DNA of 64,000 nucleotides from Candidatus Aminicenantes bacterium (GCA_014360015.1 JACIYJ010000003.1:140821-204820); one strand, 5' to 3'. Shown: positions 49,536-61,788, counted from the first letter of the stretch. The notes: generated by a model from the sequence alone, not told the origin. Numbers and translations: made by a program.

Positions 49536-51341
49536 TCAGGTGGGTGGATGCAGGCGTTTTTTGAACCAGACCCGGAGTTTTTCCATCTTCTCACGCTGAG
49601 CCAGAGGGGCCCGACGCCGGCAGGTGCAAATTTCTTCTGATCCTTCTGGTGCTCCCCAGCGGACCTCCACACAGTCGTTGGGATTGTAAGCCATTTCAAA
49701 AGCCTCTTTTCGCTTGAGAATTTCTTTGAGGCTCAGGGTCCAGGGCCGACCGTCAGACCTGGTGTAGGTTATTGAAAGCTCTTCAGCCAGCCTGGAAGAA
49801 AGGCTTTCCAGTCTGGCTTTTATTTTTTCCGGCGACTCAGATTTCTTAATTCTGAACCGTTCAGGATGCTTCAAAACTTTTTCCGGAAACTCCTCAATGG
49901 TATCCATGGCGATTAGCAGCCTCAGGTCACGGTTGGGCGTTGAATAGTCCTCCCAGGGACCGGTTGTCAGAAAGACAGTTGAACCAGAGGGCATGGGAAT
50001 AACATAACCCGGATGCTCCTGCATAAATTTTTCGCCAATTTCAACCGACTCCACCCTGACCAGCAACTGTTCATGGAGTGCCCGATAAAGTTCCCGGAGA
50101 GCAGTTTCCGGGTCAAGGGGTTCTGGGTTTATCAGCCGTTCCATTCGCTCGTAGAATTCTTCTGGCTGCAGTTTCAACTGTTCGAGCGAAAAATTACCAT
50201 AGTCCTGGCTGTCCTGAATTTCCTGGTTGGTCATCAACCTGAGCTTACCCCCACTGTTCGTTATTGGTCTGAAAGCTTTAAAACCTGGCTGGCCGACAAC
50301 ATTCTCTGTAGCAAAAAGAAAATTACCCTTCCAGAATCTTTTTATTCCGACAGTACCATCTGGCTGAGCGTCAACTGCCAGAAGTTCACCGGCTTTGTTC
50401 TCTGTCTGGGGCACCCAGCGAACTATGATTAGGGTGTGTCCATAAGGGTCAGCATAGACTACACCCGGGCGGAGGTGATTCCTCGAAAGAGGCAAAGGAT
50501 AATAATCAGAGACTTCTGCCGCTAACCTGGTTCTGGCTGTTCCCGAATGGACGGTATCCATCAGAAGGCGCATCAACCTGGCAAATTTTTTGACCTCATC
50601 ACCCGGTCTGGTCGGCAGCTCATTGGTCAGCCAGCGACCGCAGGTTGGGGCCTGAGTCAACGAGCCGCGACTGCATTCATGGAAACCAAAAGGCAGTCTG
50701 TTTTTCCAGGCAAAATAGGCTCTAAGGAAAAAAGGATTATCCGCACAATCTGGCTCGAGACTAAGGGCCCCATTGTCTTCAGATAAGCCCAGATGATTAT
50801 GAAGGAAATTTCTCCCGGGATCACGGAGGATGGAATGTAAATTTGGCCAGGAATCGTTCTCATCAGCACCATGAAAAAGTGCCTCTATCCAGGCTGAATA
50901 AAGGTTTTCCTCAGCTCTGGTCCAGCTTTTTTCTGCTTTCCAGAAAACACCGGATTCCGGGAGCCCTGGATGAAATGGAGAAACTTCAATGGTCCGAGAG
51001 AAAACAACTTTACTGCCAAGACAAATCTCCAGCCTGTATTGACCAGAAGTTACCACCCTTCCTTGCCACCATTGCCAGAAAGGCGGCCCGCCTCCTTTCT
51101 TTACCAGGGTTAATTTCTCCGCTTTTAGTTGGAGTCCTTTGAGATTGATTTCCAGATTTTTTTCGGGAATCTCTTTTTCGGAAGAAATAATCAATCTGAA
51201 GGTCATTCCAGGTGACAAACGGGCAGGAGAAACCAGAACAGATATTTCCTCCCGGGCAGACCAACCTGGCGTAAAGTTAACAGCAAGAAGAAGCCCGAAC
51301 AGCAGCAGTCTGGTTTTAATTTTAATCACTCGGTCTCTCAC
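49536..51341 (-). CDS. Large secreted hypothetical protein (601 aa)
   Basis: A signal peptide is present. No confident domain assignment was possible. A possible Cys...His...Asp arrangement (HECSRG ... YGHTLII ... DAQPDG) is only weakly reminiscent of transglutaminase-like folds. Confidence 0.5.
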   Translation of the reverse strand: MRDRVIKIKTRLLLFGLLLAVNFTPGWSAREEISVLVSPARLSPGMTFRLIISSEKEIPEKNLEINLKGLQLKAEKLTLVKKGGGPPFWQWWQGRVVTSGQYRLEICLGSKVVFSRTIEVSPFHPGLPESGVFWKAEKSWTRAEENLYSAWIEALFHGADENDSWPNLHSILRDPGRNFLHNHLGLSEDNGALSLEPDCADNPFFLRAYFAWKNRLPFGFHECSRGSLTQAPTCGRWLTNELPTRPGDEVKKFARLMRLLMDTVHSGTARTRLAAEVSDYYPLPLSRNHLRPGVVYADPYGHTLIIVRWVPQTENKAGELLAVDAQPDGTVGIKRFWKGNFLFATENVVGQPGFKAFRPITNSGGKLRLMTNQEIQDSQDYGNFSLEQLKLQPEEFYERMERLINPEPLDPETALRELYRALHEQLLVRVESVEIGEKFMQEHPGYVIPMPSGSTVFLTTGPWEDYSTPNRDLRLLIAMDTIEEFPEKVLKHPERFRIKKSESPEKIKARLESLSSRLAEELSITYTRSDGRPWTLSLKEILKRKEAFEMAYNPNDCVEVRWGAPEGSEEICTCRRRAPLAQREKMEKLRVWFKKRLHPPT

Positions 51342-55134: not shown

Positions 55135-57570
55135 ATGCCTGAAAAAAGCAAAATCCTGGCTGGAGTCTCCCTTATTTCAGCTGAGATTCTGGCTCTGGAA
55201 CTCGTCCTGACGAGGTTTTTTTCAATTTCTCAGGGCTATCATTATGCCTTCCTGGTTGTCAGTATTGCCTTTCTTGGCTTTGGTGCTGGTTCTCTTCTTC
55301 TTTTTATCGAACGCCTGAAGAATATCCGTAACCGGGAGGACTTCATTTCCAGGCTGGCTATGTTAATAAGTCTTTCCATCCTGGTCAGTTTTTTCCTGGT
55401 AAACAGGTTTCTCTTTAATCCAGTTGAGCTTCTCTGGAATCAAAACAGGATCTGCCTTATGCCTGTTCATTTCTTAATCCTAAGCTTGCCTTTTTTTCTT
55501 GGCGGGCTGGTCATTTCTTCAACTCTAACCTTTTTTCCCACGATAGTTCATAAGATTTATTTTGCAGACCTGATTGGAGCCAGCTTAGGAATAATCCTGT
55601 CCGGCCTGAGCTTCCGGCTGGCTGGCGACCGCGGAGCCATCGGGCTGCTGGTCTTGCTGGCCATTCTATCTTCATGGTTTTTTCTGGAATGGAAAAAAGC
55701 AAACCGAGAATATAAAGTCTATCAAATTGGTGCCACTCTGGCCATTCTCCTGATTTTTATGCTTTTTCCCCACCACTTCTCCTTTAAAATTTCAGATTAT
55801 AAACCGCTCTCCTTCTATTTAAAACAGAAAGACGCAGCCATCGAAAAAACCCTCTGGGATGAGAAGACCAGGCTGGACCTTTTTCATTCTCCGGCCATTC
55901 GTTATGCTCCCGGGCTAAGCCTTAAATTCTCTGGAATAATTCCAGACCAGATGGGGCTGTCGCTGGATGCTGAAAAGATTTCAGCTCTGATAAAAACTCC
56001 AGAAGATTTAGACCGATTAGCCTTTCTCGATTATTTACCAGTTTCCAGAGCCTTCAAGCTGGCTGAAGCTGGTAGAGTATTATTGATTCAGCCTGAAAGC
56101 GACCTTGAACTCTTTCTGAGCCTTAGAAATGGAGCCAGTCTGGTCACCGTATTTGAAGAAAGTTCTTTAATCAGGCAAGTTCATCAGAATGAAATCTCCA
56201 GGCTGTCGAAGGTAATGCATAAAAATTGCCAGATTTTCCTTAAAACCGTCGAAGCCCGGGCCGGTTTACTCCAGGAGAAGAATGAATATGATTTAATCGT
56301 CTTCCCCTTTCCCGACCTTCCGGGGAGCTTCAGCACTGGCTTTTACGGTCCTGGAGAAGATTATCTCCTGACCAGAGAGGCCGCCGAAAGAATGTTCAAC
56401 CTTCTCAGCCAGAAGGGAATGATAACGGCTCTATTCTATTATCTCCCACCGTCCCGCCAGGAATTGCGCTTTATGGCTCTCTGGATTGAAACTTTGGAAA
56501 AGCTCGGACTTAATCCTGAAAACCATATCCTCATCCTCAGGTCAGTTGAAACCATCTCTTTTTTCATCAAAAAAGAGCCGTACTCAGAAGAAGAACTTCA
56601 AAACTGGCAGGATTTTGCTGCTGACCACTACTTTGACCTGATCCTTCCCCGGCCAGCTGTTGGACAAAACAGAACATCATTCATTCAGTCTGATTTGACC
56701 TTTTCCGAAGAGCTGTTATCCGGTCTTTTTGACCGCGAAAAACGCCTGGAAATCTACCGCCGGTATATTTTTGAAATAAAACCGCCAGTTGATGACCGAC
56801 CATTCTTCAGGGACTTCTTCAAATGGTCAAGATGGCAAGATACTTTGAGGTTTTTTAATAGAAAAATATACCCGTTATTCCTGGGAAAATATCTCCTGGT
56901 TTTTCTGTTTGCTCAATCGCTGCTAATCGGGATGATAATAATCATCCTGCCGTTGCTAAAAGCTACATCCACCAGGTTGAAAAATGTGCCGCAGAAAAAC
57001 CGGATTTTCTTCTACTTTGCCAGCCTGGGCTTTGGTTATATGTTGGTCGAAATCACTCTTTTCCAGAAATTCATCCTGCTGCTTGGACATCCAACTTATT
57101 CTCTGAGCGCAGTCCTGTTTTTCCTGCTTAGTTCTTCTGGAGCCGGTAGCCTGAGCCTACCGAAACTGAATCATAAGATAAAAGAATCCGGTTTGAAATT
57201 CTGGCCTCTGGTCTGCATGCTGGCCATTTTCACAGAAATAATCGCCCTTAATTTAGCCAGACCGCTTTTTCTGATCAGCAGCTTACCGGTAAGGTTTGGA
57301 TTGAGTTTCCTGTTTATCTTCCCTCTGGGCTTCTGCTTAGGTGTTCCCTTCCCGGCAGGTTTGAAATTTTTCTCTTCTCAATCGCAATTAATCATTCCAT
57401 TGGCCTTTGCCGCCAATTCTTTCTTCGGTCTTCTGGCTTCGGTCTGGGGACTACTTCAGGCCCACGCCTGTGGCTACAAATCCGTTCTTGTTCTGGCCGC
57501 TCTCAGCTATCTTTTATCTTTTCTGTTTTTCTATCTCGCCGGTCATCGGGACAAACCGGACATCGAGTAA
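55135..57570 (+). CDS. Polytopic membrane protein with duplicated TM module flanking a spermidine-synthase-like (class I MTase fold) domain
   Basis: The N-terminal (about 1-210) and C-terminal (about 590-811) hydrophobic modules share EI(L/T)L..RFF...GY..AFL....[11 protein letters not shown] / E(I)TLFQKF(I)..GH..YSL....[12 protein letters not shown]. The central region ([12 protein letters not shown]...[10 protein letters not shown]...[20 protein letters not shown]) aligns with spermidine synthase but lacks GGGDGG. Confidence 0.55.
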
Positions 57571-58260
57571 TTGCTTTATCTCTGGCTGGCCTTTTATCTT
57601 CTTGACCAGAGTTAGAGTTTGAAAAAAGACTGTACTACCAACCGGTATGACCAGTCTCCCGCCTTCTTTCAACTGCTGAAAAAGTGGCGGCGGAATATGG
57701 TTGGCAGCACAGGTGACGATGATAGCATCGAAAGGAGCTTCTTCTGGCCAGCCGAAATAGCCGTCTGCCCATCGGACCTTAACCTGATGGTAGCTCAGGG
57801 AGATGAGCAAATCAGCTGCCCGTCTGGCCAGATTCTCCCGGATTTCTATTGAAAAAACCTTATCAGTGAGATGGCTCAAAACTGCTGCCTGATAGCCCGA
57901 GCCGGTGCCGATTTCCAGAACTTTTTCACCTGGTTTTATCCCGGCCACCTCAGTCATCAGAGCGACTATGTAAGGTTGAGAAATGGTCTGCCCCTCTCCA
58001 ATGGGCAGAGGGTAATCCTCATAGGCTTCTTTCTGATACTCAGGTGGGACAAAAAGATGCCTCGGAACCGCTAACATAGCTTTAAGGACTCTTTCATCTT
58101 TAATCCCCCTGCTTTTAATCTGAGCCTTGACCATCTGCTCTCTTTTTTTCACAAACCAAGTGTCCTCTTTTGTTATTTCTTTTATTTCCTGAACTGAAGG
58201 CATCAGAGATCCTGACCAGATCAGGAAAATAAGCCCCAGAATAAGTCTTTTGGCACTCAT
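57514..58260 (-). CDS. pcm: Protein-L-isoaspartate O-methyltransferase with N-terminal signal peptide
   Basis: The PCMT motifs [14 protein letters not shown] and [16 protein letters not shown] are present. A cleavable-looking N-terminus ([19 protein letters not shown]) precedes them. The 3' end overlaps 55135..57570 by 57 nt in convergent orientation. Confidence 0.8.
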
Positions 58261-58367
58261 CTTTTTTACATATTGTATCACAAAAAACCCCGATATAATC
58301 TGCCCTCACCCCTGGCGATGAAAAACCAGGCTTTAAAAATCACCTCTTGATTAGCCAGAGGCGGTGA

Positions 58368-59007: not shown

Positions 59008-60084
59008 ATGTTCGGGTTAGCCAAAGAAAAGAGTGTGGTCGGACTCGATATCGGGTCCTACTCTGTCAAGGCAGTCGAATTAAAGATTAAAAAGAAGGGA
59101 GAAAATACTCAATACGAGGTCCAGAAAATTGGCTACGAACCCCTTCCCCATGATGCCATCGTTGAAGGAACCATCATTGACTCAACTGCTGTCAGCGAAA
59201 CCGTTAAGCTGCTGTTCGAAAATGCCAAAATTTCTAACAAAGATGTAGCCATCTCCATCTCCGGAAACTCAGTGATCATTAAGAAAATTTCCTTACCGAA
59301 CATGGATCCCCAGGAGCTGGCTGAATCCATCATCTGGGAAGCCAAACATAACATCCCCTACCCTTACGAAGAAACCAACGTTGACTACGCCGTGATGAAA
59401 TCTTCAAGAACAGCTGAGGGAAACGTGGATATACTTCTGGTAGGAGCCAAAAAGGATAAGATCGCCAATTACAGTAACGCCATTTCCATGGCCAGAAAAA
59501 ACCTAATAGCCATTGAAGTAGACATTTTTTCTCTGATCAACGCTTTTGAAATCAACTACCCCGAACTGTTCAAAGAAAAGACAGTGGCCCTTATTAATAT
59601 GGGAGCTAATATTACTAATGTGGGTATAGTGGAAAGGGGTGTTCCCCAGCTGTTCAGGGACTTATCGCTCGGTGGCTATTTCTTTACTGAGAATATCCGG
59701 AAAGAACTAAACGTCAGTTTTGAAGAAGCTGAGGCTGCTTTGAAAGGTATTCCGGGAAAGAATCTCAATCCTGATCAATTTGCGGCTGTTCTGACCATGA
59801 ACATCAGGGATCTTCTTGATGAGATGGAAAAAACCTTCTCTTTCTATGAAGCTGGCGAAAAAAGAGAGCGCCGGATCGAACAGATTTTTTTGAGCGGTGG
59901 ACTGTCCCTCATTCCTAACATGGTCAGCGCCTTTGAATTGAAATTCAGGATCAAGACCGAGCTGTTTAATCCCTTTAGGTCGATCAAATATGACGAAAAG
60001 AAATTCGACCCGATTTACTTTAACGAAATGGCCCCGGTTTTTGGGGTGGCTGTTGGACTTTCAACGAGAAAGGTCGAGAAATAA
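59008..60084 (+). CDS. pilM: Type IV pilus assembly protein PilM
   Basis: VGLDIGSYSVKAVELK is the N-terminus of an actin-like ATPase fold. The protein is followed by pilN, pilO, pilP and pilQ. Confidence 0.85.
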   Translation: MFGLAKEKSVVGLDIGSYSVKAVELKIKKKGENTQYEVQKIGYEPLPHDAIVEGTIIDSTAVSETVKLLFENAKISNKDVAISISGNSVIIKKISLPNMDPQELAESIIWEAKHNIPYPYEETNVDYAVMKSSRTAEGNVDILLVGAKKDKIANYSNAISMARKNLIAIEVDIFSLINAFEINYPELFKEKTVALINMGANITNVGIVERGVPQLFRDLSLGGYFFTENIRKELNVSFEEAEAALKGIPGKNLNPDQFAAVLTMNIRDLLDEMEKTFSFYEAGEKRERRIEQIFLSGGLSLIPNMVSAFELKFRIKTELFNPFRSIKYDEKKFDPIYFNEMAPVFGVAVGLSTRKVEK

Positions 60085-60087
60085 GCC

Positions 60088-60720
60088 ATGATCAGGATTA
60101 ATTTATTAAAGCCAGAAGCTAAGGAAATCAGGGAACCTATACCGACAGGTTTACCTAAGATATCAAAAGAAAGAAAAAAAGCCAGCCTTGGGACGATCAT
60201 CTTTCTGCTGTTGCTCGTCAGCTTAGCCGGTTACTATTTCTACCAGAACTGGGAAATTCAGAAGGAAAAACAGCTCATAGCTCAAGCCCAGCAAGAAAAA
60301 AACCAGCTGCAGTATGTGGTAGCAAAACTGGACGAAGTCAAGATCCAGAAAGCCAAGCTGGAAATGAAGATCAACCTGATTAAGCAGTTAAAAAGCCATC
60401 AGGATATCGCCGTAAAAATAATGGATGAGATCAACCGAAGAATTCCTGATTTTGTCTGGCTGAAAGAAGCCAGCTATGACGGTCAGATTCTAAAGATCAA
60501 AGGCGAAGCTATTTCCAACAATCTGATTGCTGATTTTATCACCAACCTGGAACGCAGCGAGACCTTCGGTCAGGTCAATCTGATTGATTCTACTCAGAAA
60601 ACAGAAGGAGGCGCCGTTTATCTTGAGTTCAATCTGACCGTGCCTGTGATTAAACCTCAGTTAGCCCCGCCAGAACCCCCAAAAAGCCCGGCGACTCCCC
60701 AGACTACAAGAAGGAGATAA
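60088..60720 (+). CDS. pilN: Type IV pilus assembly protein PilN
   Basis: MIRINLLK is the N-terminus. The protein has a single TM helix and a coiled coil, and sits between pilM and pilO. Confidence 0.8.
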   Translation: MIRINLLKPEAKEIREPIPTGLPKISKERKKASLGTIIFLLLLVSLAGYYFYQNWEIQKEKQLIAQAQQEKNQLQYVVAKLDEVKIQKAKLEMKINLIKQLKSHQDIAVKIMDEINRRIPDFVWLKEASYDGQILKIKGEAISNNLIADFITNLERSETFGQVNLIDSTQKTEGGAVYLEFNLTVPVIKPQLAPPEPPKSPATPQTTRRR

Positions 60721-60722
60721 CC

Positions 60723-61307
60723 ATGAGAAACTGGCCGTGGTATGGACATTTAATCCTGGCAGTGGTAATCTTCGGGGTGGCTTTCTTTTTCTATTTCAAG
60801 CCGCGCAATGTTGAACTCCAGAGCCTGCGGGAATCAAGAGAGAAGCTGGAAAAAGAAGTCCAGGTTTTAAAGGAAAAGAAAAAAGAACTGGATAAGATCG
60901 AAGCCGAATTAGTTGTTCTGAATGCTACTCTAAAAGATCTGGAACAGATTATTCCCCAGAAAAAAGAAATTGCTGACATCCTCAGAAGAATCCAGCAACT
61001 GGCTTATGATTCTCGACTGAACGTTCTTAAGTTTCATCCTCAGGGCGAAATCAAGAAGGATTTTTACGCGGAGTGGCCGATTAATATCGAAATTTCTGGG
61101 ACCTATCACAATTTGGGAATATTCTTCGATAAACTCAGCAAATTCTCCAGGCTATTCAACATCAATAATTTTTCCATCAATGCCCTGAACAATCAAACCG
61201 ACTCTCTGACCATCGGTTCTAAATTTGTGGCCACCACTTATTACTTCCTCGAAGAACAGCCACAACCGGCCAAAACTGCCGCAACCTCTCAACAAAAGAG
61301 GAATTAA
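60723..61307 (+). CDS. pilO: Type IV pilus assembly protein PilO
   Basis: A TM helix and coiled coil are followed by a PilO-like core domain. Its position is canonical. Confidence 0.75.
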   Translation: MRNWPWYGHLILAVVIFGVAFFFYFKPRNVELQSLRESREKLEKEVQVLKEKKKELDKIEAELVVLNATLKDLEQIIPQKKEIADILRRIQQLAYDSRLNVLKFHPQGEIKKDFYAEWPINIEISGTYHNLGIFFDKLSKFSRLFNINNFSINALNNQTDSLTIGSKFVATTYYFLEEQPQPAKTAATSQQKRN

Positions 61308-61308
61308 C

Positions 61309-61788
61309 ATGAGAAAAACATTACCTTTGATTCTGGTGTTTTTAATGATGGGTGGTGTCGGGTTCTTTGCCCAAGTCCGGGGTCAGGAAGTCCAGAAAAC
61401 CGAACAGCAGGAAACTGTGATCTCCCCGCAGCAGGCCCTAAGCACTCTTCCCCCGCGGGCCTCATATGATCCCGGTGGCCGGAGAGACCCGTTCAAAGAT
61501 CTGATCGGTGGTGGACGAGTCAGCGGGAAAGCCTCGACCACTGAAGGACAATTAACCATAGATAATGCCACACTTGTAGGCATTGTTAAAACCCCAAAGG
61601 GCTTTGTAGCCATTGTTTCTGGCCCTCAGCAGTTCCCGTATTTTCTGAAAATAGGTGACAAACTGGCTGATGGCTATGTTTTCTCAATTAACGATTCTCA
61701 GGTTATTTTTCGCAAGACTCATGAACGTGGCTTCCCTTTGATAAGGCCCAGAAACGTTGTAAAAGAAATCAATCCGGAGGAGCGTTAA
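61309..61788 (+). CDS. pilP: Type IV pilus assembly protein PilP
   Basis: The ATG at 61309 follows the pilO stop. The protein has a signal peptide, an RDPF motif and a C-terminal beta domain. The ORF-track start at 61225 would overlap pilO and is rejected. Confidence 0.7.
   Translation: MRKTLPLILVFLMMGGVGFFAQVRGQEVQKTEQQETVISPQQALSTLPPRASYDPGGRRDPFKDLIGGGRVSGKASTTEGQLTIDNATLVGIVKTPKGFVAIVSGPQQFPYFLKIGDKLADGYVFSINDSQVIFRKTHERGFPLIRPRNVVKEINPEER

Follow-up and report, generated by a model that had tools for sequence, protein, structure and literature searches.

A 64,000-nucleotide stretch of genomic DNA from a Candidatus Aminicenantes bacterium (GCA_014360015.1, JACIYJ010000003.1:140821-204820), called the window below, carries at 55135..57570 on the plus strand an open reading frame (ORF) that begins with ATG and encodes a protein of 811 residues. 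The ORF list agrees here with a preliminary description, made from the sequence alone, of an 811-residue membrane protein with a degenerate spermidine-synthase (SpeE) fold in its middle. In our analysis the protein has the fold of the major facilitator superfamily (MFS) with the SpeE-like domain inserted between its two halves, and its gene lies tail to tail with a gene for protein-L-isoaspartate O-methyltransferase (PCMT). Coordinates of the features are collected in Table 1. The gene appears to be monocistronic, being divergent from the upstream PGM/PMM-type gene and convergent with the downstream PCMT gene. Full-length homologs have 800-830 residues and share 33-99% identity with the protein; the closest named ones belong to Candidatus Saccharicenans/Aminicenantes. 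Searched singly against Pfam, NCBIfam and the PDB sequence set, the 811-residue protein gave no matches, and family profiles were required. The full-length AlphaFold2 (AF2) model has a pLDDT of 87.3 and a pTM of 0.86.

Table 1. Features of the gene for the 811-residue protein and its partner in the window (TM, transmembrane helix).
Feature	Position	Strand	Description and basis
Whole gene	55135..57570	+	MFS-fold protein, 811 residues, with inserted SpeE-like domain; ORF list, full-length homologs and AF2 model
MFS N-domain, TM1-6, residues 1-185	55135..55689	+	
Extra helix TM7, residues 191-215	55705..55779	+	Two helices more than the 12 of the MFS fold (14 predicted); in the N/C register TM1-6 align with TM9-14
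SpeE-fold domain, residues 216-503	55780..56643	+	N-terminal β-hairpin subdomain and seven-stranded Rossmann core; predicted extracytoplasmic
Motif I remnant, residues 315-326	56077..56112	+	At the position of SpeE VLIIGGGDGGTL; HMMER alignment to 1inl
Equivalent of the SpeE gatekeeping loop, residues 394-413	56314..56373	+	Alignment to 1inl
Family-specific juxtamembrane extension, residues 504-583	56644..56883	+	Invariant Y544 and D553-D-R-P-F-F motif; invariant columns
Extra helix TM8, residues 584-614	56884..56976	+	Returns the chain to the cytoplasmic side; hydropathy and AF2 model
MFS C-domain, TM9-14, residues 621-802	56995..57540	+	
Partner gene, PCMT	57514..58281	-	PF01135, E=4e-65; N-terminal hydrophobic leader

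By hydropathy and in the AF2 model, residues 1-215 and residues 584-802 each contain seven hydrophobic helices, as expected from the polytopic N- and C-terminal regions reported earlier. In the model, TM1-6 and TM9-14 are two six-helix bundles related by pseudo-twofold symmetry and make up one complete MFS fold, with TM7 and TM8 as additional helices flanking the insert. The pseudo-twofold membrane arrangement anticipated by the preliminary description is therefore that of a complete MFS transporter, and two copies of a novel membrane module were rejected in favour of the N- and C-domains of such a transporter with two linker helices. Through TM7 the chain crosses from the cytoplasmic side, where TM6 ends, to the exterior. 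MFS proteins with 14 helices, for example the POT family, likewise carry an extra helix pair between the bundles. Given this fold, the 'transporter' half of the earlier reading is reasonable. Fold comparison puts the amine/cation antiporters NorA and VMAT2 among the nearest MFS structures. The 811-residue protein gave no Pfam MFS match, and motif A, GxxxD(R/K)xGR(R/K), was absent from the TM2-TM3 loop on direct reading.

The distribution of conserved residues follows the geometry of the fold. Here and below, the family profile was built from 31 members, column counts refer to an alignment of 202 sequences, and SpeE residues are numbered as in Thermotoga maritima 1inl. About 40 positions, including R27, E639 and N761, are kept in at least 90% of the 202 members on MFS helices 1, 2, 4, 5, 7, 8, 10 and 11, compared with about three on helices 3, 6, 9 and 12 and the linker helices together (helix limits from the AF2 model); conservation is thus found on the cavity-lining helices. 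In MFS proteins helices 3, 6, 9 and 12 face lipid. Conserved residues of the N-domain are R27 (TM1), H36, G48 and G50 (TM2), P119, F120 and G124 (TM4), and Y142, D145, G148 and G152 (TM5), with D145 invariant in an 85-sequence alignment. The C-domain features the invariant E639, a GHPxYS loop, G669, G671 and S672, the motif FPLGFxxGxPFP, and N761. Such a distribution points to a transport cavity that works and contains R27, D145, E639 and N761, and the protein is likely to be a functional transporter.

The preliminary description had called the two membrane regions clearly paralogous. A relationship between them holds as a remote one; 'clearly' does not, as the direct similarity is not significant. 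BLASTP between the N- and C-modules gave E=3.7, and hhalign gave E=0.04 with 31 sequences, in a register different from the one first proposed, and a non-significant E=0.16 with 202 sequences. The 202-sequence alignment is collinear across 162 columns in the originally proposed register, with E22 on E639, and nine weak cross-hits of hidden Markov models (HMMs) between the modules share this register. In one relative (P0116) both modules match the one membrane part of the NCBIfam model PRK03612 (NF002956), the C-module with E=1.7e-7 and the N-module with E=3.4e-3. The halves of MFS proteins are the product of an ancient duplication. Because of the collinear register, the cross-hits, the PRK03612 matches in P0116 and the MFS fold, we retain the homology of the modules as remote but real, on the strength of intermediate profiles and the fold.

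The orientation of the protein was assessed from the distribution of positive charges. When the N-terminus is placed inside, the 'in' loops hold on average 21.4 Lys and Arg residues over 202 sequences and the 'out' loops 4.4, with more in than out in 202/202; the loop after TM8 is strongly basic (mean 5.2). Canonical MFS topology is N-in/C-in. The positive-inside count, this topology and the odd-numbered TM7 together place residues 216-583 outside the cytoplasm, and this region is accordingly predicted to be extracytoplasmic. The inverted topology, with a cytoplasmic domain, was rejected on the positive-inside count. One relative of 1031 residues (P0213) has a PA14 domain, which is of a glycan-binding, extracellular type, at residues 117-180 ahead of its SpeE-like domain; if the numbering parallels that of the 811-residue protein, an assumed correspondence, the PA14 domain would lie in an 'out' loop around TM3-TM4, in agreement with the orientation given above.

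The central ~370 residues match spermidine synthases through the family profile only, the best match being T. maritima 1inl with E=9e-4. All nine PDB matches of the profile are SpeE, and a rerun with the domain alone agrees. In the profile alignment QPESDL falls on GGGDGG, a segment ending in KGMI on HLFTEEFYQACYDALKEDGVF and another segment on FDVIIIDSTD, which bears out the SpeE-like centre in the register that had been proposed from inspection. PF01564 matches 8 of the 31 relatives weakly; several distant members of the same architecture pass its cut-off of 22.9 bits, with 24-31.6 bits, and the 811-residue protein has no match even at E<=10. The domain has the two-subdomain SpeE fold, an N-terminal β-sheet followed by a Rossmann core, and aminopropyltransferases are the closest fold to it. 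The SpeE fold is thereby confirmed. Within the juxtamembrane extension the AF2 model shows helices at 522-543 and 564-582. In the equivalent of the gate loop, D394, G402, E408, Y410 and T413 are kept in 80-99.5% of the members, E408 and T413 each in 201/202, and residues 397-408 have low pLDDT, as expected of a mobile loop. Near-invariant elements across phyla are R246, D248, RYAPGLSL, G402/E408/Y410/T413, LPPPRxE, Y544 and D553-x-R-P-F-F.

Most of the residues that define spermidine synthases have been replaced. D101, which selects decarboxylated S-adenosylmethionine (dcSAM), corresponds to S322 in the present protein; Y76 corresponds to F297 and varies in distant members; and the catalytic D170 corresponds to P391, the family having Ser, Pro or Thr here. 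Columns 322 and 323 are Gly in 180/202 and 170/202 members, and Ser and Asp in the present protein. The earlier statement that GGGDGG is replaced (given as QPESDLE) is borne out by QPESDL in the 1inl alignment, with no D101-type acid. Of the SpeE residues compared, only E121 (E341, Glu in 189/202 members), the acid at the end of β2 that in methyltransferases binds the ribose hydroxyls of the cofactor, and D173 (D394, retained in 162/202) persist. A function as an aminopropyltransferase was rejected on the family-wide loss of D101, Y76 and D170.

The same losses bear on the role proposed in the preliminary description, that of a polyamine transporter or sensor with the SpeE fold as its polyamine-binding module. 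The closeness of the fold to aminopropyltransferases, the presence of NorA and VMAT2 among the nearest MFS structures and the conserved acidic D145 and E639 in the cavity are all in keeping with it. With D101 gone family-wide and the residues that bind and activate the diamine lost (Y76 to Phe, D170 to Pro, Ser or Thr), however, a polyamine-binding role is not favoured and seems to us quite improbable.

The cofactor loop differs between lineages. Distant members have GxGGG (VGVGGGIDV, IGSGGGSDV) followed by the β2 acid and lack a D101-type acid, a combination that looks like a methyltransferase-type S-adenosylmethionine (SAM) site. The corresponding sequence is EPKGG in Aminicenantes, xPAGD in Saccharicenans and QPESD in the clade of the present protein, a series that argues for stepwise remodelling of the loop. 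Methyltransferase motif I (GxGxG after β1) is accordingly found in part of the family and is QPESD here. The equivalent of E341 is His in Desulfobacterales (L050, L051, L055, L060, L062 and L066) and Met, Asn, Val, Phe or Asp in a few other genomes; where it varies, E408, T413, R27, E639 and N761 remain invariant. To judge from these alignments, selection holds the gate loop and the transporter cavity more tightly than the canonical cofactor site.

To describe the genomic context, the neighbouring ORFs of 69 loci were clustered; the count for lineages other than Aminicenantes covers 30 loci with enough flanking sequence. PCMT is the only neighbour cluster in the 69 loci that crosses phyla. It adjoins the gene in 33/34 Aminicenantes-type loci and in 17/30 loci of other lineages, including four archaeal loci; the tail-to-tail adjacency is seen in at least eight distant lineages, archaea among them. 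PCMT is convergent and downstream in 51/52 copies, the exception (L083) being upstream and divergent; the gap has a median of -44 bp and is <=250 bp in 49/51. In the window the two genes share 57 bp at their 3' ends (57514-57570). A 3' overlap of about -44 to -53 bp recurs across phyla in most related loci, which makes a conventional intergenic terminator impossible for either gene. The PCMT of the 64-kb stretch scores 219.9 bits with PF01135 (cut-off 20.3) and its translation has an intact SAM motif, VLEIGTGSG; the search for its homologs was dominated by close Aminicenantes sequences. A leader with basic, hydrophobic and acidic parts is present in 50/52 neighbour PCMTs, a few of them lipobox-like, compared with 36% of other ORFs, and the neighbour PCMT is apparently exported. 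Among the over-long family members examined no fusion to PCMT was found, only the PA14 insertion. The four archaeal loci (L053, L058, L064 and L069, from metagenome-assembled genomes of Hydrothermarchaeales, Geothermarchaeales and Methanobacteriota) each have a full-length member with an adjacent leader-bearing PCMT, which suggests that the gene pair was transferred between domains as a unit.

Prokaryotic SAM-dependent enzymes are normally regarded as cytoplasmic, and to our knowledge an exporter providing the envelope with SAM has been described neither in bacteria nor in archaea. An exported SAM-dependent methyltransferase, however, needs SAM outside the cell. The predicted outward-facing domain, together with an exported PCMT as the sole cross-phylum neighbour, points to SAM rather than to polyamines; moreover, polyamine genes were not linked among the clustered neighbours, and the sole conserved neighbour encodes a SAM-dependent enzyme. 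With somewhat less than even confidence, we propose that the protein is an MFS carrier of SAM, perhaps of SAM and S-adenosylhomocysteine (SAH), that serves the repair or modification of envelope proteins. In this scheme the ~370-residue domain of spermidine-synthase fold would be set by TM7 and TM8 between the MFS halves, outside the cytoplasm. The domain would descend from a methyltransferase-like SAM-binding domain, its glycine loop having been remodelled in the present lineage. The MFS part would export SAM, possibly in exchange for SAH, and the external domain would receive or hold the adenosyl compound, or dock the methyltransferase, at the mouth of the transporter, thereby enabling SAM-dependent repair or modification of envelope proteins by the exported PCMT. 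What the analysis shows is the fold, the predicted topology, the absence of the catalytic residues of SpeE and the conservation of the gene pair; the transported substrate, SAM binding by the degenerate domain and any interaction with PCMT we infer.

Several observations weigh against a SAM carrier that works with an exported PCMT. The start of the PCMT in the window is ambiguous, the choices being GTG at 58281, ATG at M8 and ATG at M27; M27 has AGGA 7 nt upstream, and NCBI starts the identical protein (P0268, 229 residues) there, which removes the leader. The two genes are convergent and hence not co-transcribed, and PCMT is missing from 13/30 of the non-Aminicenantes loci. The E341 position is His, Met, Asn, Val, Phe or Asp in several lineages in which PCMT is nonetheless adjacent, and the glycine loop of the present protein has S322 and D323. 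The convergent arrangement, the absence of PCMT from almost half of the non-Aminicenantes loci and the degenerate cofactor motifs of the present protein would also suit an ordinary MFS transporter whose insert is a pseudoenzyme with a structural role, as plug or stabilizer, and in which the adjacency of PCMT is inherited synteny. We consider this unlikely, since across phyla more than 25 positions of the domain vary little or not at all, among them R246, D248, APGL, E408, T413, PPPR, D553 and P556, a degree of conservation beyond the needs of a passive plug, and since PCMT adjacency with the same geometry in at least eight distant lineages is hard to explain by vertical synteny.

The layout of the protein recalls the fungal enzyme NHMT (Aspergillus nidulans AN4663), in which seven TM helices are joined to a SpdS-like methyltransferase acting on secreted proteins and the TM domain is required (PMC10349129). 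As in the present protein, seven N-terminal helices (~1-215) are followed by a SpdS-like domain without the acid of GxG(D/E)G, and the argument for a methyltransferase from the missing dcSAM acid is the one made for NHMT (PMC10349129). The likeness is one of layout. NHMT ends after the soluble domain, has no second membrane module and has a working SAM site, and it is reported to be confined to filamentous fungi (PMC10349129). By analogy, the family could be a self-contained extracytoplasmic methyltransferase, the SpeE-like domain methylating an envelope or secreted substrate, for example a protein N-terminus, the MFS part supplying SAM or the acceptor and PCMT merely sharing an external SAM pool. 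Such an enzyme is possible, if rather doubtful. Besides the action of NHMT on secreted LPMOs with a comparable 7-TM (1-215) and SpdS-like layout and a required TM domain (PMC10349129), it would account for the methyltransferase signature of the distant members (GxGGG and β2 acid without a D101-type acid), the near-invariance of E408, Y410 and T413 in the gate loop and the scores of several members above the PF01564 threshold. It is harder to reconcile with the QPESD and EPKGG loops, which put charged residues at two canonical glycine positions, or with the loss of the β2 acid in some lineages, and a conserved candidate substrate gene was not found nearby among the clustered neighbours.

Other known systems share parts of the architecture. 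PRK03612, a model of membrane-anchored polyamine aminopropyltransferases, describes a homologous membrane module and SpeE-like domain; its profile has just one membrane module, which precedes the SpeE domain (TM part ~12-217 of 522), whereas here a second module completes the MFS fold and the catalytic residues of aminopropyltransferases are missing. The model matches 14/31 family members, with a best E of 4.4e-8, but relatives reach at most 30 bits against a cut-off of 472 bits, and the 811-residue protein is unmatched. NF037959, 'fused MFS/spermidine synthase', is, judged from the literature searched, a named yet uncharacterized class that likewise combines an MFS-type membrane part with a SpeE-like domain; 2/31 relatives match it at E ~7e-4, short of its cut-off, and the 811-residue protein is unmatched. 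Canonical spermidine synthases (T. maritima 1inl, T. thermophilus 1uir and C. glutamicum 3gjy) differ in being soluble and cytoplasmic; relative to them, D101, Y76 and D170 have become S322, F297 and P391, the gate loop has 8 additional residues and there are extra family-specific motifs. Among transporters, the plant Golgi SAM transporters (GoSAMT) are MFS members (bioRxiv 10.1101/2021.07.06.451061); they and NHMT serve as precedents for the proposed SAM carrier. Compared with NorA, VMAT2 and GoSAMT, the present protein lacks a Pfam MFS match and motif A, and carries between its bundles a 370-residue enzyme-fold domain held by two extra helices.

The sandwich of two membrane modules around a SpeE fold had been thought unusual; it is instead common. 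With a profile of the C-module, 9,698 cluster representatives are recovered at E<=1e-3, of which 3,358 reach E<=1e-30. The best 150 of these matches are mostly proteins of ~800 residues with the module at ~575-800, the rest being shorter proteins in which the module is also present. The family is represented in at least 565 species genomes, including those of Aminicenantes, Nitrospinota, Nitrospirota, Desulfobacterales/Thermodesulfobacteriota, Elusimicrobiota and several archaeal metagenome-assembled genomes. As had been stated, fusions of this kind are uncharacterized: a literature search on 'fused MFS' spermidine synthase and membrane SpeE-like proteins found nothing relevant and no paper on the sandwich, and a search on periplasmic PCMT likewise found nothing relevant.

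The other recurrent neighbours, identified by eye, were set aside as lineage synteny; they are housekeeping genes such as those for ribosomal proteins L21/L27, an Obg-like GTPase and, as likely assignments, ProB, RNase G, a histidine kinase and a PBP1A. The Aminicenantes block of PGM, DivIC, SppA, CoaD and PilMNOPQ was rejected as a source of functional partners for the same reason. Within the window, a 601-residue ORF with an N-terminal hydrophobic leader lies beside SppA (49536-51341, minus strand) and represents a conserved hypothetical exported protein; its Saccharicenans counterpart (587 residues, L001) is without a Pfam domain. A type IV pilus cluster begins just downstream of coaD (59008-61788, plus strand, and beyond), its order being conserved across Aminicenantes: in the related loci L001 and L002 it runs pilM, pilN, pilO, a small gene and then the secretin. 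In a Nitrospirae locus (L003, 1-5100; P0117) the family gene follows a lipopolysaccharide (LPS) core/lipid A cluster with LpxK, a lipid A acyltransferase, two GT9 heptosyltransferases, DUF3108 and Trm112, together with toxin-antitoxin genes, a context unseen in other lineages. A flippase for a lipid or lipid-linked substrate, resembling the MFS protein LtaA, with an external domain that modifies the flipped head group, was also considered. It is very improbable: the LPS context occurs at a single locus and is not conserved, and LtaA stands below many solute transporters in the fold ranking.

Fusions of MFS or TM parts to SpeE-like domains thus form a known, uncharacterized class, and what appears to be new, judged from genome sequences, is their cross-phylum pairing with an exported PCMT. 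The tail-to-tail pairing with a protein-repair methyltransferase that is apparently exported suggests that SAM-dependent chemistry may proceed outside the cytoplasm by a route so far undescribed. More tentatively still, it may be a dedicated two-gene system of prokaryotes, including archaea, for such chemistry, in which an MFS carrier of SAM (or SAM/SAH) with an external adenosyl-binding or transferase domain would act with an exported PCMT that repairs aged envelope proteins. Should the link to PCMT be coincidental, a structurally interesting and functionally open MFS variant would remain. Thousands of annotations as 'hypothetical protein' or 'spermidine synthase' are reclassified, because the aminopropyltransferase catalytic residues are missing, and extracytoplasmic methylation and protein repair become directly testable through a widespread, unnamed family that joins a complete transporter fold to an outward-facing SAM-enzyme fold and is linked in the genome to an exported protein-repair methyltransferase. 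If the proposal is correct, the requirement of NHMT for its 7-TM part would be explained as well, this part being a membrane module from which the attached external SpeE-fold domain obtains its SAM, and the two-gene system could be of greatest importance to lineages that grow slowly on little energy, such as Aminicenantes.

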